DNA of 61,410 nt from an uncultured Bacteroidota bacterium (lineage in GTDB: Bacteria > Bacteroidota > Bacteroidia > Bacteroidales > FEN-979), in contig CALCGJ010000056.1 in assembly GCA_937900965.1 (NCBI GenBank), forward strand, positions 1 through 61,410, read 5' to 3'. The translations under genes were made by a program, and so were the position numbers. Under the pieces are notes generated by a model that was not told the origin of the DNA, made no database searches, and was given only the letters and a program-made list of their open reading frames with translations. The stretch's first letter is position 1. Every line of letters begins with the position of its first letter. This document shows positions 13,133 through 61,410 of the stretch, piece by piece.

Positions 13133-13966
13133 GTGAAAGGACCTTTTTTTGAAAGAATAATTATCATTACTCTGTTTGCTGTTGCAATGGGGTTTTTGGA
13201 GAGTGCTGTTGTGGTTTACCTGCGTGAACTTTATTATCCGGAAGGATTCTCTTTTCCGCTGACAAACCTCGCCGATCACATCCTCATTACTGAACTTTTC
13301 CGTGAGATTGCCACCATGGTGATGCTTGTAACAGTCTCCATGCTGGCTGCCCGGAAATGGAACATCAGGTTTGCCTGGTTCATTTATATGTTTGCCATAT
13401 GGGATATTTTCTATTATATTTTCCTGTGGTTATTAATCGGGTGGCCTGAGTCTCTTCTCACCTGGGACATCCTGTTTATGATTCCGACTACCTGGGTCGG
13501 ACCTGTCATTGCTCCTGTGATCAACTCTCTGACAATGATACTTCTGGCGAGTTTGATTCTACTGGCGGACAGGTGGACAAGCGGACGAGCGGACCAGCGG
13601 ACTTCCACCTCCGCCAAGGCTACGGCGGATAAAAGCGTGCAGGTTTGGGGCTCAGGGCTCAGAGCTCAGGGCTCAGCAGGACTGGTGCGGCTATCGGGAC
13701 TGGAGTGGGGATTGTTGATAATCGGATCGCTGATCACCATTACCGCGTATATTGAGGATTACAGCGTGTATATGCTTGACCGGCTCACATTAACTGAATG
13801 GTTGGGTGGAGATCATCAGGCTGAAGTAATGTCCTATGCCACAACATACATCCCCGTCTCATTTAACTGGATTCTGTTTTCGGCAGGAACTACACTATTT
13901 TTTATTGTGATCGGGTTGTTCCTCAGAAGATTATTTATAGCATCAAGAAAAAATCTACCACAATAG
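13133..13966 (+). CDS. Integral membrane protein of unknown function with a repeat-derived insert
   Basis: About 6-7 hydrophobic segments; AMGFLESAVVVYLR, REIATMVML, FAIWDIFYY, WDILFMIP..WVGPV; TAATTTTG box at 13104-13111. Confidence 0.7.
   Translation: MKGPFFERIIIITLFAVAMGFLESAVVVYLRELYYPEGFSFPLTNLADHILITELFREIATMVMLVTVSMLAARKWNIRFAWFIYMFAIWDIFYYIFLWLLIGWPESLLTWDILFMIPTTWVGPVIAPVINSLTMILLASLILLADRWTSGRADQRTSTSAKATADKSVQVWGSGLRAQGSAGLVRLSGLEWGLLIIGSLITITAYIEDYSVYMLDRLTLTEWLGGDHQAEVMSYATTYIPVSFNWILFSAGTTLFFIVIGLFLRRLFIASRKNLPQ
13565..13677 (+). repeat. In-frame compound repeat: GCGGACNN octamers, TCCGCCAAGGCTACGGCGGA hairpin, GGGCTCA heptamers
   Basis: Encodes ADRWTSGRADQRTSTSAKATADKSVQVWGSGLRAQGS between two TM helices. 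Confidence 0.8.
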
Positions 13967-14018
13967 TCACATAGGGCACATTAGATTCTATTGTGACCTA
14001 ATGTGCCTAATGTGGTGA
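13967..14018. repeat. Palindromic element CACATAGGGCACATTAG...CTAATGTGCCTAATGTG (possible terminator)
   Basis: Imperfect inverted repeat directly after the stop codon. Confidence 0.6.
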
Positions 14019-14067
14019 AGTTGGCATACAAATTAGTACTTTTGCATGTTGTTTCAAATTCAAAATC

Positions 14068-15102
14068 ATGTCGATCAAGGTTGATCATATCACCAAACTT
14101 TACGGAACCCAGAAAGCACTTAACGATGTAACCCTTGAAATCAAACCAGGAGAAGTTGTTGGCTTGTTGGGACCTAACGGTGCAGGGAAAAGCACTTTGA
14201 TGAAAATCCTTACCTCCTATATCCCGCCTACTTCAGGGGAAGCATCAGTGAGTGGATTTGATGTAATGGAACAATCTATGGAGGTTCGGAAACGGGTAGG
14301 ATATCTTCCTGAGAATAATCCGCTTTACACGGACCTCTATGTGAAGGAATTTTTGCAGTTTATTGCGAAGATTAATCATGGTGATAAAAGTCGGAAGTCA
14401 GAAGTCAGAAGTACGAAATCAACTACGAAGGAAGAAGTTAGAAGTGTTATTTCCGCGGAGCGAATCAAAGAGATAATTGACCTCACGGGGTTAGAAGCGG
14501 AACAGCATAAGAAAATCGGAGCGCTTTCAAGGGGTTACCGGCAGCGGGTGGGACTGGCACAGGCGTTGCTTCATGACCCCGAAGTATTGATCCTTGATGA
14601 GCCAACTTCCGGCCTGGACCCTAACCAGCTGGTTGAGATCCGGAATCTGATCCAATCAATAGGGAAAGAGAAAACAATCATGATGTCGACCCACATCATG
14701 CAAGAGGTGGAGGCGATCTGCGACCGTACTATCATAATCCACAAAGGAAAAATTGTTGCAGATGATAAAACAAAAAACCTCCAGAAGATGCAGCCATCGA
14801 AGATCATTATCAAGGTGGAGTTCGATAAACCAGTTCCACCCAATAAACTGATGAAGATTGTGGGTGTAAAAGACGCTTTCGACCCGAAGGCACAACTCCA
14901 GCATCAAGGATCCAGGATCCAGCATCAAGGATCCAGGATCCAGAATCCGGCATCCGGCATTTGGCATCTTGAATCAGAAGCATCAATTGACATCCGTCCG
15001 GCAGTATTCAAGTTTGCCGTTGACAATAATCTGACTGTCCTTTCACTGCAGCGTGACGAGCATCGGCTTGAAGAGGTTTTTCAGGAACTGACGAGAACGT
15101 AA
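14068..15102 (+). CDS. gldA: Gliding-motility-associated ABC transporter ATP-binding subunit
   Basis: GPNGAGKST, GYLPENNPLY.DLYVKEFL, KKIGALSRGYRQRVGLAQALLHDP, DEPTSGLDPNQL, STHIMQEVEAICDR; TACTTTTG box at 14037-14044. Confidence 0.85.
   Translation: MSIKVDHITKLYGTQKALNDVTLEIKPGEVVGLLGPNGAGKSTLMKILTSYIPPTSGEASVSGFDVMEQSMEVRKRVGYLPENNPLYTDLYVKEFLQFIAKINHGDKSRKSEVRSTKSTTKEEVRSVISAERIKEIIDLTGLEAEQHKKIGALSRGYRQRVGLAQALLHDPEVLILDEPTSGLDPNQLVEIRNLIQSIGKEKTIMMSTHIMQEVEAICDRTIIIHKGKIVADDKTKNLQKMQPSKIIIKVEFDKPVPPNKLMKIVGVKDAFDPKAQLQHQGSRIQHQGSRIQNPASGIWHLESEASIDIRPAVFKFAVDNNLTVLSLQRDEHRLEEVFQELTRT
14387..14447 (+). repeat. In-frame GAAGTCA/GAAGTAC heptamer array in gldA
   Basis: AAAGTCG GAAGTCA GAAGTCA GAAGTAC GAAATCA...GAAGTTA GAAGTGT; same family as 61336-61397. 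Confidence 0.75.
14897..14970 (+). repeat. In-frame TCCAG(C/G)A heptamer array in gldA
   Basis: The 21-mer TCCAGCATCAAGGATCCAGGA occurs twice, then TCCAGAA TCCGGCA TCCGGCA TTTGGCA; encodes QHQGSRIQHQGSRIQNPASGIWH. Confidence 0.9.
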
Positions 15103-15150
15103 GAGAGTATGAGAGTATGAGGGTATGAGGGTATGAGAGTATGAGAGTAT
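15103..15150 (+). repeat. Octamer array (GAG(A/G)GTAT)x6
   Basis: Read directly, immediately after the gldA stop. Confidence 0.95.
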
Positions 15151-15211
15151 CGCGGAATTCTGTAATTAAAATTTTTATCGAAAATCGAATTATTAGTAAA
15201 TAGAAAAATTG

Positions 15212-15219
15212 TACTTTTG
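15212..15219 (+). promoter_or_regulatory. -7 promoter box for metK
   Basis: TACTTTTG-CG just upstream of the riboswitch-like motif. Confidence 0.7.
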
Positions 15220-15227
15220 CGCCTGCA

Positions 15228-15279
15228 GGGTGGAAAGATTTGATTGATTGCAACCACTGGAAAAAATGCTAAACCAACA
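15228..15279 (+). ncRNA. SAM-II/SAM-V-like riboswitch in the metK leader
   Basis: GTGG (P1) - AAAGATTTG - ATTGATTGC - AA - CCAC (P1') - linker - GCTAAA-CCAA. This matches the GAUUU, UUGC and GCUAAA signature of SAM-II pseudoknots, and it lies upstream of SAM synthetase. Confidence 0.7.
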
Positions 15280-15343
15280 GCCTTTCCAACTTTCAAATCC
15301 CATTTCTGTAAGAAAATTAACGCAAACTAAAAATAGTTAGATC

Positions 15344-16699
15344 ATGGGATATTTGTTTACATCGGAGTCTGTTTCAGAGGGGCATCCGGATAAAGTAGCC
15401 GATCAGATATCGGACGCGCTGCTGGATGAATTTTTACGCTGGGACCCTGAATCCAAAGTTGCTTGTGAGACTTTTGTTACCACTGGTCTTGTAGTATGTG
15501 GCGGAGAAGTAAGAACAGAGGGCTGGGTTGACGTTCAGGAGACAGCCAGGAAAGTGATACGAGAAATAGGGTACACCAAAGCCGAATATCGTTTCGACAG
15601 CGAATCATGTGGAGTCATATCAACGATTCATGAGCAATCATCAGACATTAATCAGGGTGTTGTCCGTGCAAAGAAAGAGGAACAGGGAGCTGGCGACCAG
15701 GGAATGATGTTTGGATATGCATGCCGGGAGATGGATAACTTCATGCCTCTGTCGAGCGAACTGGCCCACATCCTTCTGCAGGAACTGGCAGAAATCCGCA
15801 GGGAAGGGAAGCATATGAAGTATCTAAGGCCCGATTCCAAATCACAGGTTACCGTTGAATATGGCGAGAATGGGCAACCTCTTCGGGTAGATACTATCGT
15901 GGTAAGCACCCAACATGACGAGTTCATCCTACCAAAGAATACCTCTTTCAAAGCGTTAAAAGCTGCGGAAAAAGAGATGCAGGATAAAATCCGTGTCGAT
16001 ATTGAGAAGGTGTTGATCCCCAGGGTCAGGAAGACGTTGCCTGCACGGGTCAAGAAATTGTTTGGAGATGATTACAAATTGTTTGTGAATCCAACGGGGA
16101 AATTTGTTATCGGGGGGCCACACGGTGATACAGGACTTACGGGCAGAAAGATCATTGTTGATACCTATGGAGGGCATGGAGCCCATGGCGGAGGTGCCTT
16201 CTCCGGAAAAGATCCTTCAAAGGTAGACCGCTCAGCCGCTTATGCTGCCCGTCACATTGCCAAGAACATGGTTGCCGCAGGAATCGCCGACCAGGTGATG
16301 ATCCAGGTAGCTTATGCCATTGGAGTAGCACAACCAGTAGGTCTGTATGTAAATACTTATGGAACAGCTAAAATTACCGATAAAAAAGGAAAAACCCTGA
16401 CTGATTGGGAGATCGCTGTAAAAATCAACAAGGTATTCGATATGCGTCCGTATGCTATCATTGAGCGGTTTGGATTGAAAAATCCCATTTTCCTTCCTAC
16501 AGCTTCCTACGGGCATTTCGGGAGAGATCCGTTCACCAGATATATCGATGTCTATTACCAGGTAAAAGGCTCCAAAGCGAAGAAAGGGAATGGAACTGCC
16601 AAAGAGGTTTACCAGAAGAAAGTTGATTTCTTTGCCTGGGAGAAACTGGATTATGTTGAGAAACTCAGGAAAGAGTTCGGGATCAAGGCTGGATCCTAG
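15344..16699 (+). CDS. metK: S-adenosylmethionine synthetase
   Basis: [57 protein letters not shown]. Confidence 0.99.
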
Positions 16700-16724
16700 A
16701 TGCTGTATCCTGGATCCTGGATGG
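16681..16724 (+). repeat. GGAT(C/G)CT heptamer array overlapping the metK stop
   Basis: GGCT GGATCCT AGATGCT GTATCCT GGATCCT GGATGGC; same family as 37449-37507, and reverse complement of the gldA insert at 14897. Confidence 0.75.
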
Positions 16725-23268: not shown

Positions 23269-23296
23269 GTAGAGACGAGGCATGCCTCGTCTCTAC
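23269..23296. repeat. GTAG-type REP palindrome GTAGAGACGAGGCATGCCTCGTCTCTAC
   Basis: Perfect 28-bp palindrome; its TAG is the rdgB stop codon. Confidence 0.9.
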
Positions 23297-27783: not shown

Positions 27784-28839
27784 ATGAATGACCTCAATGA
27801 ACATACGGAAGAATCGGGCGAGTTATATGAGCATTACCGATTTGTGGTAGATGGTGGCCAGAATCCTCTGCGAATCGATAAATATCTGTTCACCAAACTT
27901 GCTGATGCCTCCCGAAACCGAATTCAAAACGCTGCGAAAGCCGGGAATATCCTCGTGAACGACAAGGTGGTAAAGCCAAATCACAAAATCAAACCTCACG
28001 ATATTATCACGATCGTCCTTGCTTATCCTCCAAGGGATACAGAGATCTATCCTGAAGAAATCCCGGTAAACATTGTATATGAAGACAACGACATTCTTGT
28101 TGTCAACAAAGCGGCAGGAATGGTGGTACATCCCGGTCATGGTAATTTCACGGGCACCCTTCTGAACGCATTGGTTTATTATTTTCAGAACTCCCCCGGG
28201 AATAAGGCCATTGAAGCCAAACCGTATCTGGCTCACCGGATAGATAAGGATACAACTGGAATCCTGCTGATTGCAAAAAATGAGATAGCTCAATCAAAAC
28301 TAGCGAAACAGTTCTTCGATCACAGTGTTAACAGGACATACTTAGCCTTGGTATGGGGCGACTTCGGGGATGATGAAGGCACTGTTACAGGGAATATAGG
28401 CCGAAGCCCACGCGACCGTACGGTAATGACTGTTTACGACGATGAAGAGGTAGGCCGGCATGCCGTTACACACTACAGGGTAGTTGAACGGTTTGGGTAT
28501 GTAACCCTGGTGGAATGCCGGCTGGAGACCGGGCGAACTCACCAGATCCGTACCCATTTCAAACATATTGGTCACCCGATTTTCAACGATGCTAAATATG
28601 GTGGAGACAAGATCCTGAAAGGGACAACGTTTACGAAATACAAACAATATATCGAAAATTGCTTCGGCTTGATGCCAAGGCAAGCCCTGCATGCCAAATC
28701 TCTGGGGTTTATCCATCCTTCAACACGGAAACCTTTGTTCTTTGATTCCGGGTTGCCGGAGGATTTTCAGGCGGTAGTGGAGAAGTGGAGGAAATATTCG
28801 GGTTCACCCCTCCCAAACTCCCCTAAAGGGGAGGAATAA
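27784..28839 (+). CDS. rluD: RluA/RluD family 23S rRNA pseudouridine synthase
   Basis: S4 domain RIDKYL..SRNRIQ; VVNKAAGMVVHP, HRIDKDTTG, LETGRTHQIR, RQALHA. Confidence 0.9.
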   Translation: MNDLNEHTEESGELYEHYRFVVDGGQNPLRIDKYLFTKLADASRNRIQNAAKAGNILVNDKVVKPNHKIKPHDIITIVLAYPPRDTEIYPEEIPVNIVYEDNDILVVNKAAGMVVHPGHGNFTGTLLNALVYYFQNSPGNKAIEAKPYLAHRIDKDTTGILLIAKNEIAQSKLAKQFFDHSVNRTYLALVWGDFGDDEGTVTGNIGRSPRDRTVMTVYDDEEVGRHAVTHYRVVERFGYVTLVECRLETGRTHQIRTHFKHIGHPIFNDAKYGGDKILKGTTFTKYKQYIENCFGLMPRQALHAKSLGFIHPSTRKPLFFDSGLPEDFQAVVEKWRKYSGSPLPNSPKGEE

Positions 28840-28863
28840 GTCCCCTTTAGGGGAGTTAGGGGC
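28803..28863. repeat. CCCCTAA double-hairpin element, copy 3
   Basis: CTCCCCTAAAGGGGAGGAATAAGTCCCCTTTAGGGGAGTTAGGGG; supplies the last residues and the stop of rluD. Confidence 0.8.
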
Positions 28864-28879
28864 GAGTCAGAAGGAAAGG

Positions 28880-28911
28880 AAGAGGGACGAGGGACGAGGG
28901 ACGAAGGATGA
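28880..28911 (+). repeat. GGGACGA heptamer array
   Basis: GAGGGACGAGGGACGAGGGACGAAGGATGAA. Confidence 0.8.
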
Positions 28912-30892: not shown

Positions 30893-32730
30893 AGCTTGAT
30901 GATTCTACCCGTAATAACCTGCTCATCTAAAGAGATTCTAAGCAGGTAAAAGCCACCAGGAAGAGTTGAGGTATCAAGCGTAATCTGATTGGTCCCATTA
31001 CCTTGTTTGACTACCGTCATGACTGGCCTTCCCCATGAATCCAAAAGGGTGATATAGACAAGATCCTGGTTCAAAAAGATGATGGATTTCAGGTGCAGGA
31101 TGTCTGATGCCGGGTTCGGATAAATCTTCAATTCGGTGGGACCTATTTCGGCTTCAGGGATATTCAACGAGATTCCGTCAAGTACCATCACACCAGTGTT
31201 GTCGGGATCAATCCAATAATCAAGTCGCCTTGATGAATCTGCACCATTCAGGTCCCAGGAATAGCTAAACTTTCCGTAGTAATCAGGTTGATCAAGGAAA
31301 CTTGAATCACATGAGGCATCTCCACCGGTCAGAGCACCAACGATCCTCCTGGCCGGGTCAAAGAGCGGGGATCCGGAGGAGCCTCCTTCAGTCACCCCGT
31401 GACCACTGACGGTTTCTGCCCAAACCATCTCCCAGTGTGTCATCACCGGACCTCCAATCCAGCTTGAAGGAACCAGTGGAGTAATATAGGTTGATATTTT
31501 CTTGATATCTCCATCGGGATGATGAATGCCAACCCCATTCGGACTGGAGACATCCGCCCGATTCCAACCGTTGAACCATACATCAAAGGTATCGGGAACT
31601 GTTTGGTTTAATAACAGCAACAAGAAATCGGATCCACCAACGAATACATTTCCGCTGGCAGCTTTCACCACAGCTCCTGTCAGGGATCTGAAAACCGGGG
31701 CGAAAGGTGGATCCTCACAGGTGGGTGACTGGAATCCGAAATAAAAGATCCATTGGTTGATATCCTGCGGGGTTGCTCCTGTAACACAATGATCTGCTGT
31801 TAAGAAATAGGGCGATTTATCCTGCCGTGTATTGTTCAGCAGAGAGCCGGAACACCAGTAGGTGCCTCCATTCTTCTTCACACCGATCCGGGCAATCCCT
31901 TTTTGTTGATCCAGCCAGAGATTGCCTTCAGGACAGTGAACATTCACCTCACATGGGCCTGAAGTACCAAATCCAATTCTGTCAACTGCCTCAGGAACAC
32001 CACGATAGGCATAGGCAATTTCAGATATATGCAGCACCGGAAAACCAGATGTCTGTACAGGCTGGTTATATTCCAGTGTAATTTGATCACCAGGGATCAA
32101 AGCGGTAGAGAATAGCTCTGCCGTGTTATTGTTTAATTCCGTAAACGCTCCCAGCACCCTGGATTTATCACGATTGTATATAAAAAGCCGGCCTCCGGCA
32201 GGTATCTTAAACCTGTCAAAATAGAGGGTAATAGCTTTGGCCCCGGGGGCCTGAATTGTACAAAGCCAAAGACGATCGCCGGAGGGAAGTTTTTTCAAGG
32301 ATCCGCAATTCGGGATCCGCGATTCGGGATACGTGATATGGGATGCCGGATGCCGTTGCCGCGTCGCTCCTGCTTCTCCCGAGTACTCGGGATCGCAGCT
32401 TCGGCTCCTCGCAATGACATTAGTGCCCATTAACTGCTCACTGCTGGCTGCCAACTGCTCACTGATCCCCACGTCCACTTGCAGGTTGACAGCAAACCGG
32501 TATGGGACAGGATGCAGAAGATCCTCTTCGGCCACCGCATCCAAATCGGGAGGCGTCAGAATTAAATCAACGGAAAGAGGTTGACCGGATTTCAGATTAA
32601 AACTCCACGGAGTTCCTCCCCGGTTCAACTGCGCGGAAGAAATTACAGGCTCCATGAGACATACCATGAGCATCAACATCCCGGCGAAGACATGTTTCAT
32701 GCAGATCAGTATATCCCTGGTCTTATTCAA
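30889..32730 (-). CDS. Lysyl-endopeptidase-like (trypsin fold) serine protease with T9SS CTD (start may be 32700)
   Basis: CSGSLLNN, LTADHC, SDFLLL, GIHHPDGDIKKIS, TEGGSSGSPLF; CTD IYPNPA...GFYLLRI. Confidence 0.85.
   Translation of the reverse strand: MNKTRDILICMKHVFAGMLMLMVCLMEPVISSAQLNRGGTPWSFNLKSGQPLSVDLILTPPDLDAVAEEDLLHPVPYRFAVNLQVDVGISEQLAASSEQLMGTNVIARSRSCDPEYSGEAGATRQRHPASHITYPESRIPNCGSLKKLPSGDRLWLCTIQAPGAKAITLYFDRFKIPAGGRLFIYNRDKSRVLGAFTELNNNTAELFSTALIPGDQITLEYNQPVQTSGFPVLHISEIAYAYRGVPEAVDRIGFGTSGPCEVNVHCPEGNLWLDQQKGIARIGVKKNGGTYWCSGSLLNNTRQDKSPYFLTADHCVTGATPQDINQWIFYFGFQSPTCEDPPFAPVFRSLTGAVVKAASGNVFVGGSDFLLLLLNQTVPDTFDVWFNGWNRADVSSPNGVGIHHPDGDIKKISTYITPLVPSSWIGGPVMTHWEMVWAETVSGHGVTEGGSSGSPLFDPARRIVGALTGGDASCDSSFLDQPDYYGKFSYSWDLNGADSSRRLDYWIDPDNTGVMVLDGISLNIPEAEIGPTELKIYPNPASDILHLKSIIFLNQDLVYITLLDSWGRPVMTVVKQGNGTNQITLDTSTLPGGFYLLRISLDEQVITGRIIKL
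32298..32464 (-). repeat. In-frame compound insert (heptamers plus RPE-like arm with nested palindrome) in the protease prodomain
   Basis: Minus strand: GAGCAGT/GGCAGC heptamers, GTCATTGCGAGGAGCCGAAG[CTGCGATCCCGAGTACTCGGGAGAAGCAG]GAGCGACGCGGCAA, then ATCCCGN heptamers. Confidence 0.85.
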
Positions 32731-36767: not shown

Positions 36768-37463
36768 ATGAAGATCCTGATTGTCTCTGCAACCCATTTT
36801 GAGATCAAAAAGCTGATGGAGAGGAATGACCTTGTTGAAGTTATCCCCAACCACCTCTACCGCTTCAGCATGGTTCCGTTGCAGGTGGATTTGCTGAATA
36901 CAGGAATGGGGATGCTTCAGACAGCATTTTACCTGGGAAAAACAATGCAGGAAAGATCATATGATTTTGCATTAAATGCAGGTATCTGCGGAGCTTATCA
37001 CCCTGAGATACCCTTGGGGAGTGTTCTTCATATAACGGAAGAGGGACTTCCTGAACCAGGTGTTGAAGAGGAGGGTGCGTTCAGGAGTATTTTCGAGCTT
37101 GGGTTGATGCATTCTGATGCATTCCCATTCGAAGGCGGGAAACTGACAAACACGCTTGTTTCAGAATGGGAAGCCATCAACCGGTTACCTAAAGTTACCG
37201 GAAATTCTGTCAACACAATGCAAACTGATCCGGGAAAAATAAAGCGACTGACAACCCTTTTTCCAGCAGATGTGGAGACCATGGAGGGAGCCGCATTCCT
37301 GTTTGGCTGTCTTGTTGAAAAGATCCCCTGTGCCCAGATCCGAGCAGTATCGAATTATGTGGGTGAGCGGGATAAGACCAAATGGGAGGTCCGGCTTGCG
37401 CTAAAAAATCTTGATACAGTGTTGATGGAAGTGTTGGAAGAAATCATAGATTCTGGATCCTAG
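36768..37463 (+). CDS. mqnB: Futalosine hydrolase
   Basis: MKILIVSATHFEI, TGMGM..TAF, NAGICG, VETMEGAAF, QIRAVSNYVGERDK..W; adjacent to mqnD. Confidence 0.88.
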   Translation: MKILIVSATHFEIKKLMERNDLVEVIPNHLYRFSMVPLQVDLLNTGMGMLQTAFYLGKTMQERSYDFALNAGICGAYHPEIPLGSVLHITEEGLPEPGVEEEGAFRSIFELGLMHSDAFPFEGGKLTNTLVSEWEAINRLPKVTGNSVNTMQTDPGKIKRLTTLFPADVETMEGAAFLFGCLVEKIPCAQIRAVSNYVGERDKTKWEVRLALKNLDTVLMEVLEEIIDSGS

Positions 37464-37623
37464 ATCCTGGATCCTGGATGCTGGATGCTAGATGCTGGAT
37501 GCTGGATAATGACAAGAATGAGCATGAGTGACGAATGACATGAATTACCTTTTACATTTCTGACCTGATAACTGACAACTGACAACTGACTCCATGACCC
37601 CATGACCCCATGACCTCATGACC
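37449..37623 (+). repeat. Mosaic of four repeat families: GGAT(C/G)CT heptamers, AATGACAAG element, AACTGAC heptamers, CCATGACC octamers
   Basis: Read directly between mqnB and mqnD; includes the mqnB stop. Confidence 0.9.
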
Positions 37624-38481: not shown

Positions 38482-39865
38482 AAACATCCCCCGAAATACA
38501 ATTTCAGCGATTTTCAGCCAGGCTCTTCATGAAGGTCTGATCCGTGAGGAAGATACGGCGGTACTCTTTCATGACTTCAATTATCTTGCATCACGCATAG
38601 CATATCTAAAATCCTGTTTTCCGTCTGACACTCTTCACGGACTGGCTATTAAATCAAATCCCCTTCTCCGGATACTGGAATTTACGCGGACAATGGGAAC
38701 ATGCGTAGAAGCTGCTACCGTAGGAGAGGTTACTCTGGCTATGAGAACCGGCTACAGCCCCAATCAGGTTATCTTTGATTCCCCTGTCAAAACAGAAGCT
38801 GATCTTCGGTTTGCCCTTGAGCTTGGGGTACACATGAACTGCGACAATCTCACAGAATTAAACCGGGTTGACAGTCTTCTTAAAAATATTACTTCCAACT
38901 CCACTATAGGTATCCGGATCAATCCCCAGATAGGTGTTGGTGCCATTCTTGAGTCGAGTGTGGCCGGGAAATATTCGAAATTCGGAGTTCCTGTCAATAC
39001 CATGAGAAGGGAGCTGGAAGATGCTTTTGCTAACTATCCGTGGCTTACAGGCGTCCATCTTCACGTAGGATCACAGGGATGTGCCATGGAGATGCTTGTG
39101 AACGGAGTGGGTGTACTTTATGATTTTGTATGTGAAGTAAACCAAAAACGAACAGCGAAGGGCGAACAGCCTGTTGCAATCTTCGACATTGGAGGAGGAC
39201 TGCCAATTTCCTATTCCTATCAACAGAGACCTCCACGGATGGAGGATTATGTGGCGGCATTGCGGGAAAGGGCCCCGGGATTGTTTGATAGCTCAGGGCA
39301 CAGGGCACAGGGCACAGGGCTCAGGGCACAGGGCTCAGAGAGTTCTTCACCCCGGCACCACGGCACCATGGCACCACGGCAAAATGGCGAAACCGGAGAG
39401 GTATCCTGGAGACTGATCACTGAATTCGGGCGGTGGGTATTCGTAAACAGTGGTTTTACAGTCAGCCGGGTGGAGTATGTGAAAAGGGATCCCGGCATTA
39501 ACACAGCCATGATCCATGTTGGAGCTGATCTTTTTGTCAGAGAATGTTTGAATCCAACAGACTGGAAGCATGAATACAGTATCCTGGATTCGCAGGGCAA
39601 ACTTAAGAAGGGTCTTGATGACCAGCCTTATAACATCGCAGGGCCGCTCTGTTTTGCAGGTGATATCCTGGCCAAAGGGATCCCGCTTCCGAAAGTGGAA
39701 GAGGGGGACTGGCTTGTGATCCATGATACCGGAGGATATACATTTTCGATGTGGTCTCGCTACAACAGCAGGCAAACACCGAGGATACTCGGCTGGTTTG
39801 AGGGGACGTTTTCGGTTTTGAAGGAGAGGGAGAGTCTGGAGGATTTGGTTGGGTTTTGGGAGTGA
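38474..39865 (+). CDS. lysA: Group IV PLP-dependent decarboxylase, diaminopimelate decarboxylase-like
   Basis: AIKSNP (PLP Lys), SKFG, HLHVGSQ, DIGGG, TEFGR, IAGPLCFAGD, DTGGY; substrate not certain. Confidence 0.7.
   Translation: MIENIPRNTISAIFSQALHEGLIREEDTAVLFHDFNYLASRIAYLKSCFPSDTLHGLAIKSNPLLRILEFTRTMGTCVEAATVGEVTLAMRTGYSPNQVIFDSPVKTEADLRFALELGVHMNCDNLTELNRVDSLLKNITSNSTIGIRINPQIGVGAILESSVAGKYSKFGVPVNTMRRELEDAFANYPWLTGVHLHVGSQGCAMEMLVNGVGVLYDFVCEVNQKRTAKGEQPVAIFDIGGGLPISYSYQQRPPRMEDYVAALRERAPGLFDSSGHRAQGTGLRAQGSESSSPRHHGTMAPRQNGETGEVSWRLITEFGRWVFVNSGFTVSRVEYVKRDPGINTAMIHVGADLFVRECLNPTDWKHEYSILDSQGKLKKGLDDQPYNIAGPLCFAGDILAKGIPLPKVEEGDWLVIHDTGGYTFSMWSRYNSRQTPRILGWFEGTFSVLKERESLEDLVGFWE
39291..39400 (+). 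repeat. In-frame CAGGGC(A/T) heptamers plus GGCACCA(C/T) octamers in lysA
   Basis: Encodes SGHRAQGTGLRAQGSESSSPRHHGTMAPRQNGETGE just before the conserved LITEFGR. Confidence 0.9.
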
Positions 39866-39920
39866 AGGCATGGAGGCATGGAGGCATGCCTTCTTGCCTC
39901 CATGCCTTCATGCCTTTGTA
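39863..39920. repeat. Head-to-head inverted octamer arrays (TGGAGGCA)n/(TGCCTCCA)n
   Basis: TGAAGGCATGGAGGCATGGAGGCA-TGCCTTCTTGCCTCCATGCCTTCA; begins at the lysA stop; related units at 59355-59374. Confidence 0.85.
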
Positions 39921-39965
39921 CCTTTATTCCTTTTCACTACCTTTACCTCCCAAAATCAAACGCGC

Positions 39966-40931
39966 ATGATCATCGTTACAGGAGCTGCCGGATTTATTGG
40001 AAGTTGTTTAGTTGGCAAACTCAATAACCAGGGAATCAAAGAGATTGGGATTGTTGATGATTTTTCCCATCCGGAGAAAGCCCTTAACACCCGGAATAAG
40101 GCATTTGAGGTCTCCATCGACCGGAAAGAATTTGCTGACTGGTTCCGCAAAAACAACGGATTAGTTGAGTTCGTCTATCATATTGGTGCACGCACCGATA
40201 CTACAGAGTTCAACATGTCTGTATTTGATGAACTCAATCTGAACTACTCCAAAGAGATCTGGAAACTTTGCACCGCGTTTAATATTCCACTGGTTTATGC
40301 ATCCTCTGCTGCCACCTATGGCGATGGATCCCTGGGATATACTGACGATCACAATCTCATCCCAAAACTTCAACCCCTGAATCCTTATGGAGTTTCCAAA
40401 AATGAGTTTGACAAATGGGTGTTGAGCCAGGAGAAGACTCCCCCCTATTGGTTTGGGTTGAAATTCTTCAATGTCTTCGGACCCAATGAGTACCACAAAG
40501 GGAGAATGGCATCTGTGGTTTTTCATGCTTACAATCAGATACGGGATACTGGATCCGTGAAATTGTTTCGTTCACATAATCCTGATTACCCGGATGGGGA
40601 ACAGTTGAGAGACTTTATCTATGTCAAAGATGTGGTGGATGTACTGTATTTTCTGATGAATCATCAAACAAATTCCGGAATTTATAACCTAGGTACAGGA
40701 AAAGCGCGCACCTTCCTTGATCTGGTCAACAGCGTATTCACTGCTCTGGGTGAAGACCCCTCCATCGAATTCATCGACACACCTATTGATATCCGTGATA
40801 AATATCAATACTTCACGGAAGCCGCTATGCAAAAGCTCCACTCCATCGGTTATACCAAACCGTTCACGCCTCTTGAAGATGGCATCCGGGAGTATGTGCA
40901 GGAGTATTTAAGAGAGGGGAGCTGTTATTAA
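39966..40931 (+). CDS. rfaD: ADP-L-glycero-D-manno-heptose 6-epimerase
   Basis: MIIVTGAAGFIGS, YASSAATYG, PLNPYGVSK, FFNVFGPNEYHKGRMASV, RDFIYVKD, KYQYFTEA. Confidence 0.93.
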   Translation: MIIVTGAAGFIGSCLVGKLNNQGIKEIGIVDDFSHPEKALNTRNKAFEVSIDRKEFADWFRKNNGLVEFVYHIGARTDTTEFNMSVFDELNLNYSKEIWKLCTAFNIPLVYASSAATYGDGSLGYTDDHNLIPKLQPLNPYGVSKNEFDKWVLSQEKTPPYWFGLKFFNVFGPNEYHKGRMASVVFHAYNQIRDTGSVKLFRSHNPDYPDGEQLRDFIYVKDVVDVLYFLMNHQTNSGIYNLGTGKARTFLDLVNSVFTALGEDPSIEFIDTPIDIRDKYQYFTEAAMQKLHSIGYTKPFTPLEDGIREYVQEYLREGSCY

Positions 40932-40932
40932 G

Positions 40933-41059
40933 GTAGGGAGGTAGGGAGGTAGGGAGGTAGGGAGGTAGGGAGGTGAAAAGGGTGTGAGGGTATGAGGGTT
41001 AGTGGAACTGCCAACTGCAAACTGCCCACTGTCCACTGCCCACTGCCTACTGCCTACTG
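40933..41059 (+). repeat. Mosaic: (GTAGGGAG)x5, GAGGGTAT octamers, ACTGCCN heptamers (about 7 copies)
   Basis: Read directly downstream of rfaD. Confidence 0.95.
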
Positions 41060-41061
41060 TT

Positions 41062-51200: not shown

Positions 51201-53708
51201 GGGGGACTTGTACAACCTGTTTCTATCCTCAGTGAGAATTTCAATTCCGGAGCTCCCGGGTGGACATTTGAGAATGGAGCCACATCCCCGCCTGCAGGTG
51301 ACTGGTATTACCAACCTGTACCTTATTCGGGAGGCTGTTGCAGCTTTACCAATTTCACCACCACTGACGGAGGCAGTTTTGCCTACGCCGATTCGGATGC
51401 CGGAGGTTCAGGAACCACCAACGATACAAAACTGATTTCACCATCATTCAGCACTATGGGGTACTCAGCGGCAACACTGACTTTTGAGAATCTGTATTAC
51501 CAGATTGGATCAGATATTACAGTCGCATTGGAAATCTCCACTGATGGGGGAACGACCTGGACTATTCTCAGAGATTATTTAGCGCTTGGTAGCCAGGGGA
51601 CAACAACTTCCGGTGCACAGGCAACTACCCTTGCAACGGTTGATCTTGCTGCCTATCTGAACCAGGCTGATGTTAGAATCAGGTACAACTACTCAAGTGG
51701 CTGGGGATATTACTGGCTCATAGATGATGTTCAGGTTACCGGAACCCCTGTTGCAGCTTTCACATGGGCGCCATTCACGGACCTCTATTCAGATCCGGCA
51801 GCCACTGTTCCTTATACAGGTACTGTAAACCCAACTGTCTACTCCAAACCATCGATGGCAAGAACCTATATCGTAACCGCTTCTTCCCCTTCACTGTGCA
51901 CCACTTCAAACAGCGTGACGGTAAGCCTGCTCCCTGTACCTACAATCACCGGTGCGGGAACCGTTTGTTCCGGAACCAGGGGTGAGATCTATACAACCGA
52001 AACAGGAATGACAAATTATACCTGGACGGTTTCAGCAGATGGCACCATAGTCAGTGGCGGAGGCACCTCGGATAATACAGTAACCATAGACTGGATGATT
52101 GCCGGAACGCAAACTATCACGGTGAATTACACAGACAGTTACGGGTACCAGGCAGCAGTTCCAACAGCTATGAATGTAACGGTTAATCCGGTGCCGGATG
52201 CCGTTGCAGGTGCCGACCGGACCATCTGCGCAGGTCAAAACACAATTCTTGGCGCAGCGGCAGTAGCGGGTAATACCTATAGCTGGACCTCTGTTCCCGC
52301 CGGGTTTACATCATCCACTGCTGATCCGTCGGTTTCTCCGCTTGTAACAACTACTTACACTCTAATAGAGACCATTACTGCTACCGGATGCATGAACAGT
52401 CACAGTGTGATTGTGACTGTCAACCCGATCCCAGCGGCAGTTGCAGGAGCCGACAGGGCCATTTGCTTAGGTGAAAACACACGCATCGGAGCAACTGCTG
52501 TTGCGGGTAATACCTATAGCTGGACCTCCGTCCCGGCTGGTTATACTTCAGCTCTGGCAAATCCGCTGGTCCATCCTCTCGTAACCACCACGTATACCCT
52601 TGTTGAGACCATAACAGCTACAGGATGTACGAACACTCATAGTGTGATTGTAACAGTCAACCCATTACCTGATGCAAATGCCGGCGCAAACCGGGGAATC
52701 TGTCTTGGTGAAAGCACTCAGATCGGAGCAGCACCAGTCCCGGGTAGCACCTATAGCTGGAGCTCTCTGCCACCTGGATTCTCTTCTACTGAAGCCAACC
52801 CAACTGTAACTCCTTTGACAACATCAATCTATACGCTAGTCGAGATTATTACAGCTACCGGTTGTCTTAACAGCAATGGTGTCTTTGTGACGGTGAATCC
52901 GTTACCAGCTGCAGCAGGATCAATTACCGGTTCAGGCACCGTTACGCAAGGCCAGACAGGCGTTGCATACAGTGTTGCTGCCATCGCTAACGCAACAGGC
53001 TATACCTGGACTCTGCCAACAGGAGCAACGATCACATCTGGTGACAATACAAGCAGTATCGTTGTCGACTTCTCGGCATCGGCCTCCTCCGGTGTGATGA
53101 GTGTATACGGTTCGAATGCATGCGGGGATGGCACGCAATCGCCTGATTTCACAATCACCGTGACCTCTTCTGTCCCAACAACACTAACTGTGGGTAATGA
53201 GATTGTTCATGTTGGTGAAACCAAATGCTACAATGCCCTCGAGACAATCACTGTGGCAGGAAGCGGCACCACATTTGTCGTGGAACCCGGAGGTGACGCT
53301 ACCTTTATAGCAGGTCAGAAAATCCTGTTCCTGCCAGGCACCACAGTACAATCAGGAGGACATATGTGGGCTTATATCACTACCACAGGGGTCTACTGCG
53401 GGATACTTGCTCCTTCCATTGTCTCAGTTGCAACGGAAGAGTTCACCCCTCCATACTCAGATAAGAGCTTCTTCAAAGTCTATCCGAACCCTACCAGCGG
53501 AAAGTTCACCATGGAGTTGACCGGAGTCGACGAAGAATCGGAGGTCTTTGTTGAGATCTATACAATGCGTGGAGAATCAATGCACAAAGTGAAACTGATT
53601 GGTGAAACCAGTCATGAATTTACGCTGGAAGGCAATCCTCCGGGCATTTATATCCTGCGGATCCTGAACAAGGATATGGCAGGGACTGCCAAGATCATCA
53701 AGCGATAA
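45270..53708 (+). CDS. Giant (2812 aa) T9SS-secreted adhesin-like protein: beta-helix N-terminus, Ig-like repeats, PKD-like domains, CTD
   Basis: Signal peptide; N/I-rich parallel beta-helix repeats (IYNNxI); three RCG.GTV.L...WYD..TGG...GTG..FTTPVIS.TT.YYV modules; three 79-aa AGADR.IC repeats; CTD VYPNPTSGKFT...KIIKR. Confidence 0.88.
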   Translation: MKKISFLLIAMIISGLSFGQLTGTKTIPGDYATIEAAITALNTSGVGAGGVTFNVAAGHTETFSDPTVGTITTNTGSATNPIIFQRSGAGANPLITGAALASSSTTDGIIKIEGTDYVTFDGIDVQENPGSTSNFYDWGYALLVASSTDGAQHTTIRNCAITLDNSNTSSRGIYSNNHSATSTSSITPTSADGTVSYSSIDNNTISNVYYGIYFSGYSSATYYSQDNYIGTGGGNSLTNFGGGSSAVYGIYMIYQNGARIANNMINGGTGSSSTVYVIYSGTGTNSNIDIYSNTITLDRSGNSTTYIIYNTTGASGTTNTVNIYNNIVENCTFTTATSASWYGLYCSASAATVNIYGNIIRNNTKPGTGITYLLYQFNTAASGNENVYNNSIYGNANTGTGTLYCLYSSPVSTTNKEIFRNSVYDNSTGGSSLYGLYTSTGATVNIYQNSIYGQSTTSSSGNNYGIYISSGTTLSCYNNFISDLQAPASSNNPAIRGIYVSSGTTIGLYYNTIYLDATSTGTNFGSCAVYASTSPALEMRNNILADLSTPNGTGLSVAFRRSSTTIGSYATTSNNNDFYAGTPGPSNLIFYDGTNAFQTILDYQTFVSPIDAASFTSLPPFMNVAFTPYDLHIQTGVSTKCESGGSTVSTPNITIDYDGQARYPNPGYPDDPSYPASAPDVGADEFAGIPSFSCATPVPGNTMSTANNLCLGQEITLSLENAVPGTGVSYQWQSSPDGVTYSDITGETSLVYTTTPAESLYYQCIVTCQNGPESATSTPIQVDFLNSILTTTPGNRCGTGTVDLYATGSTGTTLNWYDALTGGAWAGTGSPFTTPVISSTTNYYVGAEGISAGNAAVGAGATTSSTYSNPFYSLWSNLHTQHLITAAELTAAGISAGDLTSVALDVTNAGTLPMIDLSVKIGATTETSLTAFLSPLFTEVYTNASYMPTLGLNVLLFSTPFNWDGTSSIVLEFCHGNGSSTATMSRTVKADATAYASSIRAYRTSATSGATICADVTTNLLTYTTRPQFTFGGQVACSSPRSMVVATVTAPPALTITPDQTVCNNSVGMLEVTSTLADYDTYVWTPVTNLFTDAACTVPYVAGTSATTVYAKTSTPGSTIYTCLGTNATTLCANTATSEVTTLPGTVVIESTPVSICITGTPTLDATPATGYGTATLQWQDSPDGIAFTDIPGANSASYTPAAPVTTTTYYKIQVYVGAVLCTESNVVTLIVNDPQLTGTTPGSRCGIGTVTLGATGTGGTLTWYDMPAGGTVVGTGPSFTTPVISNTTTYYVQNESAGTVNEIGGRTDVVTTTGFLTTPNWGVRFDATVGFTLNSTTIYPVGSGTVTIALLDDANTEIASTAAMPVSGTGAATPNVVTLGFNVPIGTDYKLVLKDYSGITSLLRESSGNSFPYPSPSGAISVTSGWTGSSSSSYYWFYSLDISIGCSSPRIGVTATVTPAPDLTISVGQTVCNNSPAMITVTSTIADFDTYVWTPATNMFTDAACTIPYVAGASATTVYAKSTTGSVTDYTCTAENLTSMCVNVATSEVTILPASPPITADPAAICVTGSTTLTPNPSTGYGTATFQWQDSPDGITYTDIPGATAISYTTPTLTSTTYYKLIISLLGVPCTESLGIAQVDDPQVTNTVPGSRCGTGTVTLIGFTGAGYQLDWYDAPTGGNFLGTGFFFTTPVISATTDFYVSASSGGSSTYFVGPSDPASVGTTSSSTLTNHFMIFDITAGGLILNSVDIFPTATLGSSYTIIIQDAALNEIYNSGPFVNTVTGGATAQTVTIDATIPQGTGYRMGVSVNAGMTRNTAGAAYPYSVPGVVSITGNTFSTAYYYYFYNWELSTGCASARTAVTATVNPAPPVMATAAPTTICEGESSTLSASSSNDPNYTYTWTPTTTPPTGASVMAYPPVTTTYTVQANDNTAGPYAGCQAFADVLVTVNPMPGAITITPPGAGINPGDIQELTASGGLVQPVSILSENFNSGAPGWTFENGATSPPAGDWYYQPVPYSGGCCSFTNFTTTDGGSFAYADSDAGGSGTTNDTKLISPSFSTMGYSAATLTFENLYYQIGSDITVALEISTDGGTTWTILRDYLALGSQGTTTSGAQATTLATVDLAAYLNQADVRIRYNYSSGWGYYWLIDDVQVTGTPVAAFTWAPFTDLYSDPAATVPYTGTVNPTVYSKPSMARTYIVTASSPSLCTTSNSVTVSLLPVPTITGAGTVCSGTRGEIYTTETGMTNYTWTVSADGTIVSGGGTSDNTVTIDWMIAGTQTITVNYTDSYGYQAAVPTAMNVTVNPVPDAVAGADRTICAGQNTILGAAAVAGNTYSWTSVPAGFTSSTADPSVSPLVTTTYTLIETITATGCMNSHSVIVTVNPIPAAVAGADRAICLGENTRIGATAVAGNTYSWTSVPAGYTSALANPLVHPLVTTTYTLVETITATGCTNTHSVIVTVNPLPDANAGANRGICLGESTQIGAAPVPGSTYSWSSLPPGFSSTEANPTVTPLTTSIYTLVEIITATGCLNSNGVFVTVNPLPAAAGSITGSGTVTQGQTGVAYSVAAIANATGYTWTLPTGATITSGDNTSSIVVDFSASASSGVMSVYGSNACGDGTQSPDFTITVTSSVPTTLTVGNEIVHVGETKCYNALETITVAGSGTTFVVEPGGDATFIAGQKILFLPGTTVQSGGHMWAYITTTGVYCGILAPSIVSVATEEFTPPYSDKSFFKVYPNPTSGKFTMELTGVDEESEVFVEIYTMRGESMHKVKLIGETSHEFTLEGNPPGIYILRILNKDMAGTAKIIKR
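52192..52900 (+). repeat. Three tandem 237-bp coding repeats (79-aa Ig-like unit)
   Basis: P.A.AGA.R.IC.G..T.IGA..V.G.TYSW.S.P.G..S..A.P.V.PL.T..YTL.E.ITATGC.N...V.VTVNP occurs three times. Confidence 0.9.
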
Positions 53709-59286: not shown

Positions 59287-59354
59287 ACCGTTGAAAAAAC
59301 GAATTTATGTCAAAAATAGGGAAAATTCTGCAATGAAAATGGGATTAAGGAATC

Positions 59355-59420
59355 AGGGCATGGAGGCATGAAGGTCTCTCCGACTCCTCTGTGCCTCCTC
59401 CGTGATCTCAGTGGTAAAAA
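59355..59420 (+). repeat. GGAGGCAT octamers plus a CTCTGTG..CTCCGTG..CTCAGTGGT element
   Basis: AGGGCATGGAGGCATGAAGG, then CTCTGTGCCTCCTCCGTGATCTCAGTGGTAAAAA. Confidence 0.55.
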
Positions 59421-59475
59421 CGAATAGTTCAACTATTATCAATAAATTTACAGTCTGAAGCTGACATCCTCAATC

Positions 59476-61410
59476 TTGAAACATTCTCCCCTATATTTCT
59501 TGTTTTCCCTTGGACTTGCTCTCTCCTTACAGGGCCAATACTATTCCACAGGCCAGGATCCGGCTTCAGTCAGATGGAGCCAGATAAGGACCGATTCATT
59601 CAGGATTGTCTTCCCGGAAAGCTTTATCAGCAACAGCCAGCATCTTGCCAACATCCTGTCGCTGACTACCAAATACGAAACGAAGTCACTCCAGTCAAAA
59701 GTTCCCCGGATGCCGTTTCTACTGCATACCAGTTCTACTATTTCAAATGGTGTGACAGTCTGGGCTCCGCGGCGCATCGAGTTGTATACCTGTCCTCCCC
59801 AGGATATCTACGCCGAAGAGTGGCTCGAACAGTTGGCGCTGCACGAATACCGGCATGCGGTACAGACCAGCAAGATGAACCAGGGCTTCACAAAAGTGCT
59901 CTACTACATCTTTGGTGAGCAGGCAACCGGCGCTGTCCTGGGACTCTATATCCCATCATGGTTCCTCGAGGGGGATGCTGCAGTAACCGAAACAGCTCTC
60001 TCCAATACGGGGCGAGGCCGTGTGGCTTCGTTTGCTGCTCCCCTTCGGGCACAGTTCCTCCAGAAAGGGATCTACTCCTACGACCTGGCTACAATGGGTT
60101 CTTTTAAAACCTTCACCCCTGATGCCTATGTCCTTGGATACCATCTGGTTGCCAGATCGAGAGAGAAATATGGCTATGAACTCTGGGACCATTCCCTGGA
60201 TAAAGTGGCTAAACTCCCCTTCATGGTGGTGCCCTTCAATGCCGGCATCAAACAGAAGACGGGTTTATGGAAAACCGGTCTCTACCGGAAGATGATGGAG
60301 GAGCTTCTTATTGATTGGCTGCGGCAGGAAGATGACTCATGGCAATCATCCTATCGTCGGGTTACCGAACCTGACCGATCCGACTACACCACATGGGACC
60401 GGCCTCAATACGCCAACGACTCGATCCTGATCGCGGCCCGGTGGAGCAATGAGGGGGTGCCAAAACTTATGCTGCTGAACCAATCGGGGCAATCACTGAA
60501 GCTGACCAGGCTTGGGGCTTATCAACCCGGTAGTCTCTCGGTTGAAGGAGATGTGGTGGTATGGACAGAGTACCGGCCGGATATCCGGTGGGAGAACAGG
60601 AGTTATTCGGTGATCAGGAAATACGCACCCCTAAATCCCAGTTTGCTTCGCATTGCTCGCAAGGGGACTTACTCCCCCTTTAGGGGGTTGGGGGGTAAGT
60701 CGGGGTGCAGGGATCTAACCCGCAAATCCCGCTATTTCTCTCCTGCCCTTTCCTCTGACGGAAGCCGGATTCTGGCGGTGAGGATCACTGAAGAGAATCA
60801 ATCATTTATTGACATTCTGAACATCGAAAACGGGGAGGTTCTGATCTCCATTCCGGCACCGCTTAACGGATTATTCCTCCAACCGGCCTGGGCGACAGAT
60901 GGCGGCAAGATTGCTTCAATCCTGCTAACACAGGAGGGAAAATCACTCCAGGTAATTGATGTATCAGGTGACTCCAGAACCACCTATTTAAATCCTGCAT
61001 TCACCGAGATCTCCGGCCCTCTCCTCTTTTTCAGGAATTACCTGCTTTTCATGGCCGACTATACAGGCATCGAAAACATCTTTGCCATCGACACCCTGAC
61101 CCGGCAACTCTACCAGGTTACGTCAGCGCGTTTTCAGGCTGTCAACCCTTCCATCTCTCCTGACGGGAACACGCTAACCTATTCCGATTATTGTGCCGAC
61201 GGGATGATGGTGGTGACCCGCGAATCGGACCCTTCACGATGGATTAAACTGGATTCGGTTCCCGAATTCACCTTTGAGCTGGCAGAGGCGATGGCGAGGC
61301 AGGAGGGGGTGAATGTTCAGGATAGCGTTAGAAAGATGTACGAAGTTCGAAGTACGAAGTACGAAAGCAAGTTCGAAGTTGGAAGTACGAAGTACGATTC
61401 ATCATTCACC
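59476..61410 (+). CDS. Exported protein with a gluzincin-like HEXXH domain and TolB-like propeller repeats (3' partial; not in ORF track)
   Basis: The frame from TTG 59476 translates sensibly at every point checked up to the window end: MKHSPLYFL...QYYSTGQDPASVRWSQI, LALHEYRHAVQ, PSWFLEGDA, YFSPALSSDG, PSISPDG. Confidence 0.8.
   Translation, partial: MKHSPLYFLFSLGLALSLQGQYYSTGQDPASVRWSQIRTDSFRIVFPESFISNSQHLANILSLTTKYETKSLQSKVPRMPFLLHTSSTISNGVTVWAPRRIELYTCPPQDIYAEEWLEQLALHEYRHAVQTSKMNQGFTKVLYYIFGEQATGAVLGLYIPSWFLEGDAAVTETALSNTGRGRVASFAAPLRAQFLQKGIYSYDLATMGSFKTFTPDAYVLGYHLVARSREKYGYELWDHSLDKVAKLPFMVVPFNAGIKQKTGLWKTGLYRKMMEELLIDWLRQEDDSWQSSYRRVTEPDRSDYTTWDRPQYANDSILIAARWSNEGVPKLMLLNQSGQSLKLTRLGAYQPGSLSVEGDVVVWTEYRPDIRWENRSYSVIRKYAPLNPSLLRIARKGTYSPFRGLGGKSGCRDLTRKSRYFSPALSSDGSRILAVRITEENQSFIDILNIENGEVLISIPAPLNGLFLQPAWATDGGKIASILLTQEGKSLQVIDVSGDSRTTYLNPAFTEISGPLLFFRNYLLFMADYTGIENIFAIDTLTRQLYQVTSARFQAVNPSISPDGNTLTYSDYCADGMMVVTRESDPSRWIKLDSVPEFTFELAEAMARQEGVNVQDSVRKMYEVRSTKYESKFEVGSTKYDSSFT
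60627..60696. repeat. CCCCTAAATCCC double-hairpin element, copy 4, in frame inside the last CDS, with nested TTGCTTCGCATTGCTCGCAA
   Basis: Encodes PLNPSLLRIARKGTYSPFRGLGG. Confidence 0.8.
61336..61397 (+). repeat. In-frame GAAGT(A/T)C heptamer array in the last CDS
   Basis: GTAC GAAGTTC GAAGTAC GAAGTAC GAAAGC AAGTTC GAAGTTG GAAGTAC GAAGTAC; encodes YEVRSTKYESKFEVGSTKYD. Confidence 0.8.

Follow-up and report, generated by a model that had tools for sequence, protein, structure and literature searches.

The described repeats closest to those analyzed here are the long simple sequence repeats or short tandemly repeated repetitive sequences (long SSR/STRR), which consist of head-to-tail units of 5–11 nt. 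In the parts of MacGregor 2015 (PMC4679880) used here, TAACTGA heptamer repeats are reported from Beggiatoaceae, Cyanobacteria, and five Bacteroidetes. Copies overlap stop codons, and the few copies within open reading frames (ORFs) are found chiefly toward the ends of proteins and in hypothetical proteins. The same parts summarize Mrazek 2007 as finding that heptamers dominate long repeats. Rehm et al., in the portions of PMC4692102 used here, describe GGGAATC/GGGGAYT repeats of Xanthomonas and Nostoc, in which the G-rich strand is the sense strand just past stop codons. The present analysis concerns contig C56 (CALCGJ010000056.1; 61,410 nt, hereafter the window) of a 3.79-Mb draft genome of an uncultured Bacteroidota bacterium (301 contigs, 45% G+C, 95.9% complete). 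Within the analysis, the assignment to Bacteroidota is based on GldA and Por_Secre_tail together with the phylum sampling. Arrays of 7- and 8-nt units and small hairpin elements, designated P1 and P2, occur there both between genes and in frame within them.

The first-pass annotation, made from the sequence alone, knew of no description of such a system in Bacteroidota. This stands for the scale of the in-frame arrays, of which no account was found in the literature, although the supplementary tables of PMC4679880 may list more cases. It does not stand for the heptamers as such, since the parts of that source used here already place them in Bacteroidetes, with few in ORFs. About one-third of the strong arrays of this genome lie in frame within genes, including conserved enzyme cores, unlike the repeats of MacGregor. 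The arrays otherwise share with long SSR/STRR the head-to-tail arrangement, the dominance of heptamers, the mostly intergenic location, a typical size of about four units, and a sporadic phylogenetic distribution. In addition, the G-rich strand is the sense strand directly after stop codons, and a four-unit AACTGCC array is present in many phyla. The arrays depart from long SSR/STRR in that octamers are nearly as common as heptamers (388 versus 587) and that hundreds of unit sequences are present.

P1 and P2 resemble Rickettsia palindromic elements (RPE) in being palindromic, lying in frame within genes, and adding peptide segments without destroying the protein. Such palindromic in-frame insertions are formed by P2 in a serine protease and by P1, with a nested piece, in the last coding sequence (CDS) of the window. 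RPE are Rickettsia-specific, single-copy insertions of about 100–150 bp; by contrast, most of the inserted DNA here consists of tandem 7/8-nt arrays, and the hairpins span 27–80 nt. The small dispersed repeats (SDR) of Nostocaceae, treated by Elhai et al. in 2008, are reportedly embedded in heptamer arrays. P2 is likewise very small (27–62 nt), structured, dispersed, and often embedded in heptamer/octamer arrays. It differs from SDR in phylum and sequence, in its Bacteroidota-wide occurrence, and in lying in frame within ORFs in 15 of 34 copies. P1 and P2 are also short, abundant, mainly extragenic palindromic repeats like the repetitive extragenic palindromic (REP) sequences and their hairpin-forming doublets (REPIN), as these are characterized in the parts of PMC3116915 and PMC3733652 used here. 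Unlike in the system of REP/REPIN and REP-associated tyrosine transposase (RAYT), many copies are intragenic and no Y1/RAYT gene was found in the genome. Neither element starts with the REP heads GTAG or CGTC given in those parts of PMC3733652.

In-frame repeat inserts in the genes of the window

Tandem Repeats Finder (TRF) returns 58 rows for the window, mostly with periods of 7, 8, or their multiples. The first-pass annotation had pointed to seven sites at which dispersed short repeat families were thought to have inserted in frame. TRF and reading of the sequence place repeats within open frames at all seven sites (Table 1), and a check run against distant orthologues or solved structures shows that every one is an in-frame insertion. 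The dispersed families are borne out only in part. Five sites (two in gldA and one each in the membrane protein gene, lysA, and the second site of the last CDS) are tandem arrays of 7- and 8-nt units rather than interspersed repeats. The other two, in the protease gene and at the first site of the last CDS, also hold discrete hairpin elements.

The insert of the membrane protein is composed of 4.8 units of GCGGACAA (13565–13602), a spacer, and 4.1 units of GGGCTCA (13648–13676), and it encodes a peptide containing GSGLRAQGS. The insert is missing in all six aligned orthologues (G007–G010, G015, and G017; relatives are designated by G numbers). At the same spot, the G008 orthologue has an array of 9-nt period. 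GCGGACA arrays near gldA in G001, G002, and G004 were considered as orthologues of the membrane protein array and rejected, as they lie outside that gene. In an alignment of 20 GldA sequences, both insert sites vary in length and sequence within the genus and part of the family, and neither insert is present in the eight more distant sequences. Site 1 is built of GCGGACAA-type units in G001 and of AAGTACG-type units in the window genome.

The insert of the type IX secretion system (T9SS) serine protease is composite. Two array segments (32299–32355 and 32433–32464; GGATCCGCAATTCG, GGATGCC, and ACTGCTC on the plus strand) flank a P2 element, a 62-nt hairpin at 32356–32417. The orthologue alignment shows that the array part is common to G004, G001, and G006, while the P2 peptide (MGTNVIARSRSCDPEYSGEAGATR) is found only in the window genome. 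G011, G012, G020, and G021 have no insert.

The LysA insert falls at the junction of two Pfam domains. Residues 269 and 311, which bracket it, align to residues 266 and 268 in the structure of a diaminopimelate decarboxylase (4xg1). The insert is encoded by 6.4 units of CAGGGCA (39294–39338) and 4.2 units of CACCACGG (39348–39381). A variable insert is present in all eight other genus orthologues recovered across the site; the G001 match ends before the site. LysA of G012, which belongs to another genus of the same family, has no insert.

At the first site of the last CDS, the P1 element is common to G005 and G004, and the piece nested in it is found only in the window genome. Other members of the genus carry arrays at this position, and G011, G012, and G022 carry nothing. 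The second site is also an insertion relative to distant orthologues. Across these genes, the orthologous sites of relatives are again filled with 7/8-nt arrays, often from unrelated unit families, indicating permissive spots with rapid turnover. The content of the sites thus differs among species of one genus, and the addition of segments, which the first-pass annotation took to be ongoing, is recent on this evidence.

Identical peptides occur in unrelated proteins, as had been noted: GLRAQGS in the membrane protein and LysA, and EVRSTK in GldA and the last CDS. Translation confirms both pairs. They had been taken as the sign of a common DNA element, for which the arithmetic of 7- and 8-nt periods can be substituted. 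Three heptamers equal 21 nt, or seven codons that cover all three phases of the unit. Three units therefore always give one cyclic peptide of seven or eight residues, whatever the phase of entry; (GGGCTCA)x3 yields GLRAQGS and (GAAGTAC)x3 yields EVRSTKY, up to rotation. As neither 7 nor 8 is divisible by 3, unrelated proteins acquire identical peptides, and a common mobile element is not needed.

The strand on which a unit is read is also nonrandom. Arrays inside ORFs avoid the sense strand that bears a stop codon (strand counts of 0:5 for AAATGGTG, 1:8 for AACCTTG, and 0:2 for AACTGGTG). Where either strand could be read through, the arrays favor the one that encodes the hydrophilic peptide (7:0 for AAGGACG, 8:1 for ACCACGGC, and 3:18 for AACTGCC). 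At gene ends, 201 arrays of the genome overlap stop codons at the loose score defined below, including those at 13012–13085, 15099–15150, and 40931–40974 of the window; many genes thus end within an array. In these, the strand rich in G/A, which carries the stop, serves as sense (0:10 for ACCTCCCT, 7:0 for AACTGGTG, and 6:0 for AAATAGTG).

Array load of the genome and its lineage

Arrays were called with TRF at a loose score of at least 30 or a strong score of at least 50, and a trinucleotide shuffle within 300-nt blocks served as the null genome. At the loose score, the genome contains 2281 nonoverlapping arrays, of which 587 have a period of 7, 388 of 8, 61 of 6, and two of 5. The shuffled genome yields 49 arrays of period 7 and 65 of period 8, with none of either at the strong score. 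The head-to-tail units that define long SSR/STRR are therefore present far above chance. The strong set of the real genome, comprising periods 7, 8, 14, 16, 21, and 24, numbers 644 arrays.

Most of the strong arrays (434/644) lie outside ORFs or overlap ORF ends, although ORFs make up about 92% of the genome. The remaining 210 lie inside ORFs, far exceeding the five or more invaded genes of the earlier claim. Among these, 172 are located at least 30 nt from the ends of 114 ORFs of at least 200 aa; at the loose score, the numbers rise to 415 arrays in 279 ORFs. The array-bearing ORFs encode ordinary proteins. Twenty ORFs were drawn at random from 57 (at least 300 aa, outside the window, array score of at least 60), and ten of them were scanned against Pfam in draw order, one 1424-aa ORF being passed over. 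All ten match Pfam families, and in six the Pfam domains lie on either side of the array or extend across it. They include AnmK, a class-V aminotransferase, a radical SAM/SPASM protein, and an enzyme resembling pyruvate phosphate dikinase (PPDK). The statement that loops have been added to many proteins is thereby upheld.

The units are diverse but unevenly used. The 586 heptamer arrays that were classified fall into 179 unit classes, which together with P1 and P2 agrees with the proposed involvement of several families. The commonest classes are AACTGCC (42 arrays), ATCCGGC (40), and AGGATCC (29). Thirteen heptamer classes contain at least ten arrays each, where about 2e-7 would be expected if the arrays were spread evenly over the 1172 possible classes.

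The load is concentrated in the lineage of the window genome. Ten genomes of the genus, other genera of the family, and other families of the order were compared on sampled stretches of up to 20 kb. The window genome has 31 arrays of the 7/8 type per 100 kb. Nine genus genomes have 6–37, and the tenth has none in a sample of 8.4 kb. Outside the genus, the values are 0–17.5 within the family and 0–5 in other families of the order. Content and length at the same locus differ among species of the genus in GldA, LysA, the protease, and the last CDS, as in long SSR/STRR.

Single units reach much further. The four-unit AACTGCC array is present in at least 120 stretches from many phyla, and the matches listed include Cyanobacteria, Chromatiaceae, Acidobacteriota, Chloroflexota, Planctomycetota, Verrucomicrobiota, and several Bacteroidota. 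One repeat system common to all phyla is not claimed, as AACTGCC loci elsewhere lack P1 and P2 and hold almost none of the other units of this genome. In heptamer-rich loci of other phyla, octamers are rare (20 versus 260 heptamers). A search of metagenome contigs of the Joint Genome Institute (JGI) for strain variants gave no matches.

Hairpin elements and the origin of the repeats

P2 was counted by the pattern (WWTG)TCATTGCGAGG, variable stem-loop, GACGNRGCAA, of which the genome holds 34 copies. The ends are fixed but not inverted, with TCATTGCGAGG at one side and GACGNRGCAA at the other. The copies fall into length classes of 29, 38, 53/54, and 62 nt with a core of 27–29 nt, and are open in five of six frames. 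Among 401 genomes sampled from the phylum, 86 carry the pattern, representing 47 of 180 genera; a single genome holds as many as 30 copies, and a reversed control pattern gives no hits. P2 is thus a phylum-wide small element and not a peculiarity of the genus. P1-type cores number 57, of which 14 lie in ORFs, and show no association with arrays. Both elements lack stop codons in most frames. In Rfam they have only hairpin-like hits below threshold, and no family reached its gathering score. One element lies nested within the other at 60626–60700 of the window and on contig C223. With their nested insertions and length classes, P1 and P2 behave like discrete small mobile elements.

The 15 P2 copies in ORFs of at least 200 aa all add a multiple of 3 nt, the core and a 4-nt leader together measuring 33, 42, 57, or 66 nt. 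Outside ORFs this is the case for 8 of 19 copies (Fisher p = 0.0005). The in-frame rule is compatible with either a 4-nt leader or a 7-nt duplication. The suggested test of whether insert lengths are multiples of three is thus positive for P2 within ORFs. For the arrays, TRF boundaries make the test uninformative.

P2 is closely linked to the arrays. Twenty-one of the 34 copies (62%) lie within 15 nt of a 7/8-type array, compared with 15% of random intergenic windows and 2.4% of random windows overall. Direct repeats that match at six or more of seven positions flank 18 of 33 copies (control mean 0.45, maximum 3); these are mostly units of the surrounding array. Arrays can also build terminator-like palindromes by themselves. 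The octamer array at 39856–39925 forms with its own inverted copy a perfect hairpin of about 24 bp (−48.2 kcal/mol, z −7.8). Such palindromes are a possible route from arrays to hairpin elements.

The repeats are probably the product of a lineage-specific bloom of 7/8-nt arrays of the long SSR/STRR type, joined by small hairpin elements and filtered by selection into permissive loops. The genus, and to a lesser degree the family, bears a very high load of 7-/8-nt arrays together with P1 and P2. Strand slippage would create the arrays and alter their copy number, as differences between species suggest, and hairpin elements are added into arrays and into one another, as the nesting shows. Most of the repeat DNA is found between genes and at gene ends. 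Inside genes, copies would survive where the frame is kept, the sense strand is free of stops, the peptide is mostly hydrophilic, and the loop or domain junction is permissive. Such a filter would lead to the reuse of few hot-spot sites with contents differing from species to species. The conservation of frame suggests that the inserts are most likely translated, giving additional loops at the protein surface. For the spread of units between loci, ectopic recombination or template switching between arrays would be favored over transposition.

Several points weigh against this account. According to the shuffle, about one-tenth of the 7/8-nt arrays at the loose score may be due to chance, and the counts of arrays in ORFs are approximate, resting on rough longest-ORF calls (3059 ORFs, 92% coding). 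The lengths of in-ORF TRF arrays show no excess of multiples of three (48:48:49), which implies that the frame is kept by the whole patch and not by whole arrays. In G008, LysA (L190, contig C60) is split into two overlapping frames within a heptamer array, with 137 nt between the conserved motifs, owing either to a true frameshift or to an assembly error. Slippage at the arrays is inferred from species differences. Moreover, local slippage alone cannot explain the 13 large heptamer classes or the replacement of one family by an unrelated one at the same site, so units must be copied by some further mechanism.

It has also been proposed that all of the families are nonautonomous transposable elements, akin to RPE or to miniature inverted-repeat transposable elements (MITEs), that are mobilized in trans and still insert into genes. 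This is unlikely as an explanation of the whole. P2 does look discrete in its ends and length classes, is spread across the phylum, and is flanked by direct repeats well above the control; P1 and P2 are nested in each other, the protease copy of P2 is species-specific, and unit families are common to many loci. Yet the direct repeats are mostly units of the host array, close to which the majority of P2 copies lie, and the ends of P2 are not the terminal inverted repeats of MITEs. The arrays, which make up the bulk of the sites, lack the fixed length of MITEs and vary in copy number. Their flanks are uninformative (about 0–0.3 bits), and the idea that they are pieces of larger conserved elements was rejected for this reason. 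No inverted termini were seen in the array sequences that were read, without a formal test. Nor do two of the enzymes suggested as candidates fit. RAYT (Y1 transposase, PF01797) has no match in the genome, although absence is not proven in drafts; it was found in a single one of the ten genus genomes but in 11 of the 12 that come from the order's other families, and was rejected as mobilizer. The distribution of reverse transcriptase is patchy, with four matches in the genome and no match in G002, G004, or G008, all of which are rich in arrays, and it was rejected as driver. No autonomous partner of P1 or P2 was seen in these draft genomes, where absence is unproven. An enzyme-driven transposon reading is thus not supported for the arrays; for the hairpin elements, whose behavior agrees with that part of the earlier proposal, it may still hold. 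Mismatch-repair loss was rejected as a cause of the arrays, as the genome encodes both MutS domain I and the MutL C-terminal domain. A more speculative and rather improbable reading ties the arrays to P2 itself. The 7/8-nt periodicity would be the footprint of a P2-linked process that repeatedly duplicates the adjoining 7–8 nt, with staggered-cut insertion/excision or replication restart at the hairpin as candidate processes. On this view, arrays would be scars that give rise to more arrays and spread by copying from one locus to another. If true, this would offer a handle on why heptamers dominate the long tandem repeats of prokaryotes, and it would point to a mutational engine by which loops are continually added to about 4–9% of the proteome.

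There is little likelihood that the in-gene arrays are kept because they are useful, whether as contingency loci that switch genes on and off by 7-/8-nt slips or in the role of flexible linkers under selection. Housekeeping enzymes such as LysA, AnmK, the aminotransferase, and the radical SAM protein carry them, and phase variation is hardly to be expected of such hosts. The sequence of the inserts is not conserved from one species to another, and coding DNA is strongly depleted of arrays, with about one-third of them in ORFs. Set against this are the LysA orthologue of G008, out of frame within its array, the persistence of hot spots through the genus, and the fixed orientation of the stop-codon arrays, which agrees with the position of the G-rich heptamers of Xanthomonas and Nostoc in the portions of PMC4692102 used here. 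It is very improbable that the segments are assembly artefacts or old conserved low-complexity linkers. Repeats do assemble poorly, and the genome is a draft, metagenome-type assembly in 301 contigs. However, at least half of the sampled words of the stretch 12900–15300 are present in nine public runs from at least four studies. The array pattern recurs in independently assembled relatives, including the single-contig genome of G011, and the segments are missing from distant orthologues and solved structures. This reading is largely refuted.

On the account of an array bloom filtered by selection, a whole lineage tolerates repeat-derived loops in 114 or more ordinary genes, and perhaps in about 280, core enzymes included. 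The turnover of these loops between species would amount to a natural experiment in which new protein segments arise from noncoding repeat DNA. In practice, such repeats can produce spurious low-complexity "motifs" common to unrelated proteins, as well as frameshift calls in draft genomes, as for LysA of G008, and broken contigs. The link between P2 and arrays parallels the cyanobacterial reports and, by this analogy, may make the origin and spread of heptamers testable.

Further repeat features of the window

The repeat features of the window are listed in Table 1, the inserts within genes preceding those between genes and at gene ends.

Table 1. Coordinates of repeat features in the window (x, number of units)
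Feature	Position	Strand	Details
Membrane protein insert, ~33 aa	13565..13677	+	ORF 13133–13966; TRF, translation
gldA insert site 1	14387..14447	+	AAGTCAG/AAGTACG heptamers (AAGTCAG x3.6 at 14388–14412); peptide SRKSEVRSTKSTTKEEVRS
gldA insert site 2	14881..14970	+	TCCAGGA/ATCCGGC heptamers (14897–14968); peptide QLQHQGSRIQHQGSRIQNPASG
T9SS serine protease composite insert, in frame	32298..32464	-	ORF 30889–32730
LysA insert, ~41 aa (aa 270–310), in frame	39282..39403	+	TRF; PDB alignment
Last CDS, site 1	60626..60700	+	GC-rich P1 hairpin read in frame (PLNP...TYSPFRGLGG) and nested 23-nt P2-like piece (SLLRIARKG)
Last CDS, site 2	61336..61397	+	GTACGAA x8.9 (61338–61397); peptide YEVRSTKYESKFEVGSTKY; ORF runs past window end
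Intergenic P1 hairpin (CCCCTAAAGGGG...CCCCTTTAGGGG)	7040..7085	.	Fold
Composite array, GTAGGGAG (8 nt) then TGTAGGA (7 nt)	13012..13085	+	Includes TAG stop of ORF 12083–13024
GTATGAGA x6.5 array	15099..15150	+	Begins at gldA stop codon (TRF)
Intergenic P1 hairpin followed by GGACGAG x4.4 array	28817..28908	.	Fold z −6.4
Intergenic array cluster	37443..37623	+	GATCCTG x8.4, CTGACAA x3.7, TGACCCCA x4.6
Octamer array AGGCATGG with own inverted copy	39856..39925	+	Directly 3' of lysA stop
Three adjoining intergenic arrays	40931..41060	+	AGGTAGGG x5.5, AGGGTATG x2.6, AACTGCC x7.7

The ORF at 45270–53708 (2812 aa) contains three tandem copies of 237 nt at 52171–52881 with 64–73% identity. These are ordinary domain repeats and are separate from the 7/8-nt arrays. 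A SAM-II riboswitch of the long-loop type is located at 15224–15282 on the plus strand, upstream of the ORF at 15344–16699; its score of 60.4 bits exceeds the gathering score of 44. In addition, a short GC hairpin (GAGGCGAGGCATGCCTCGCC) is present in two copies at gene ends (2202–2226 and 23272–23296), and both copies look like terminators.

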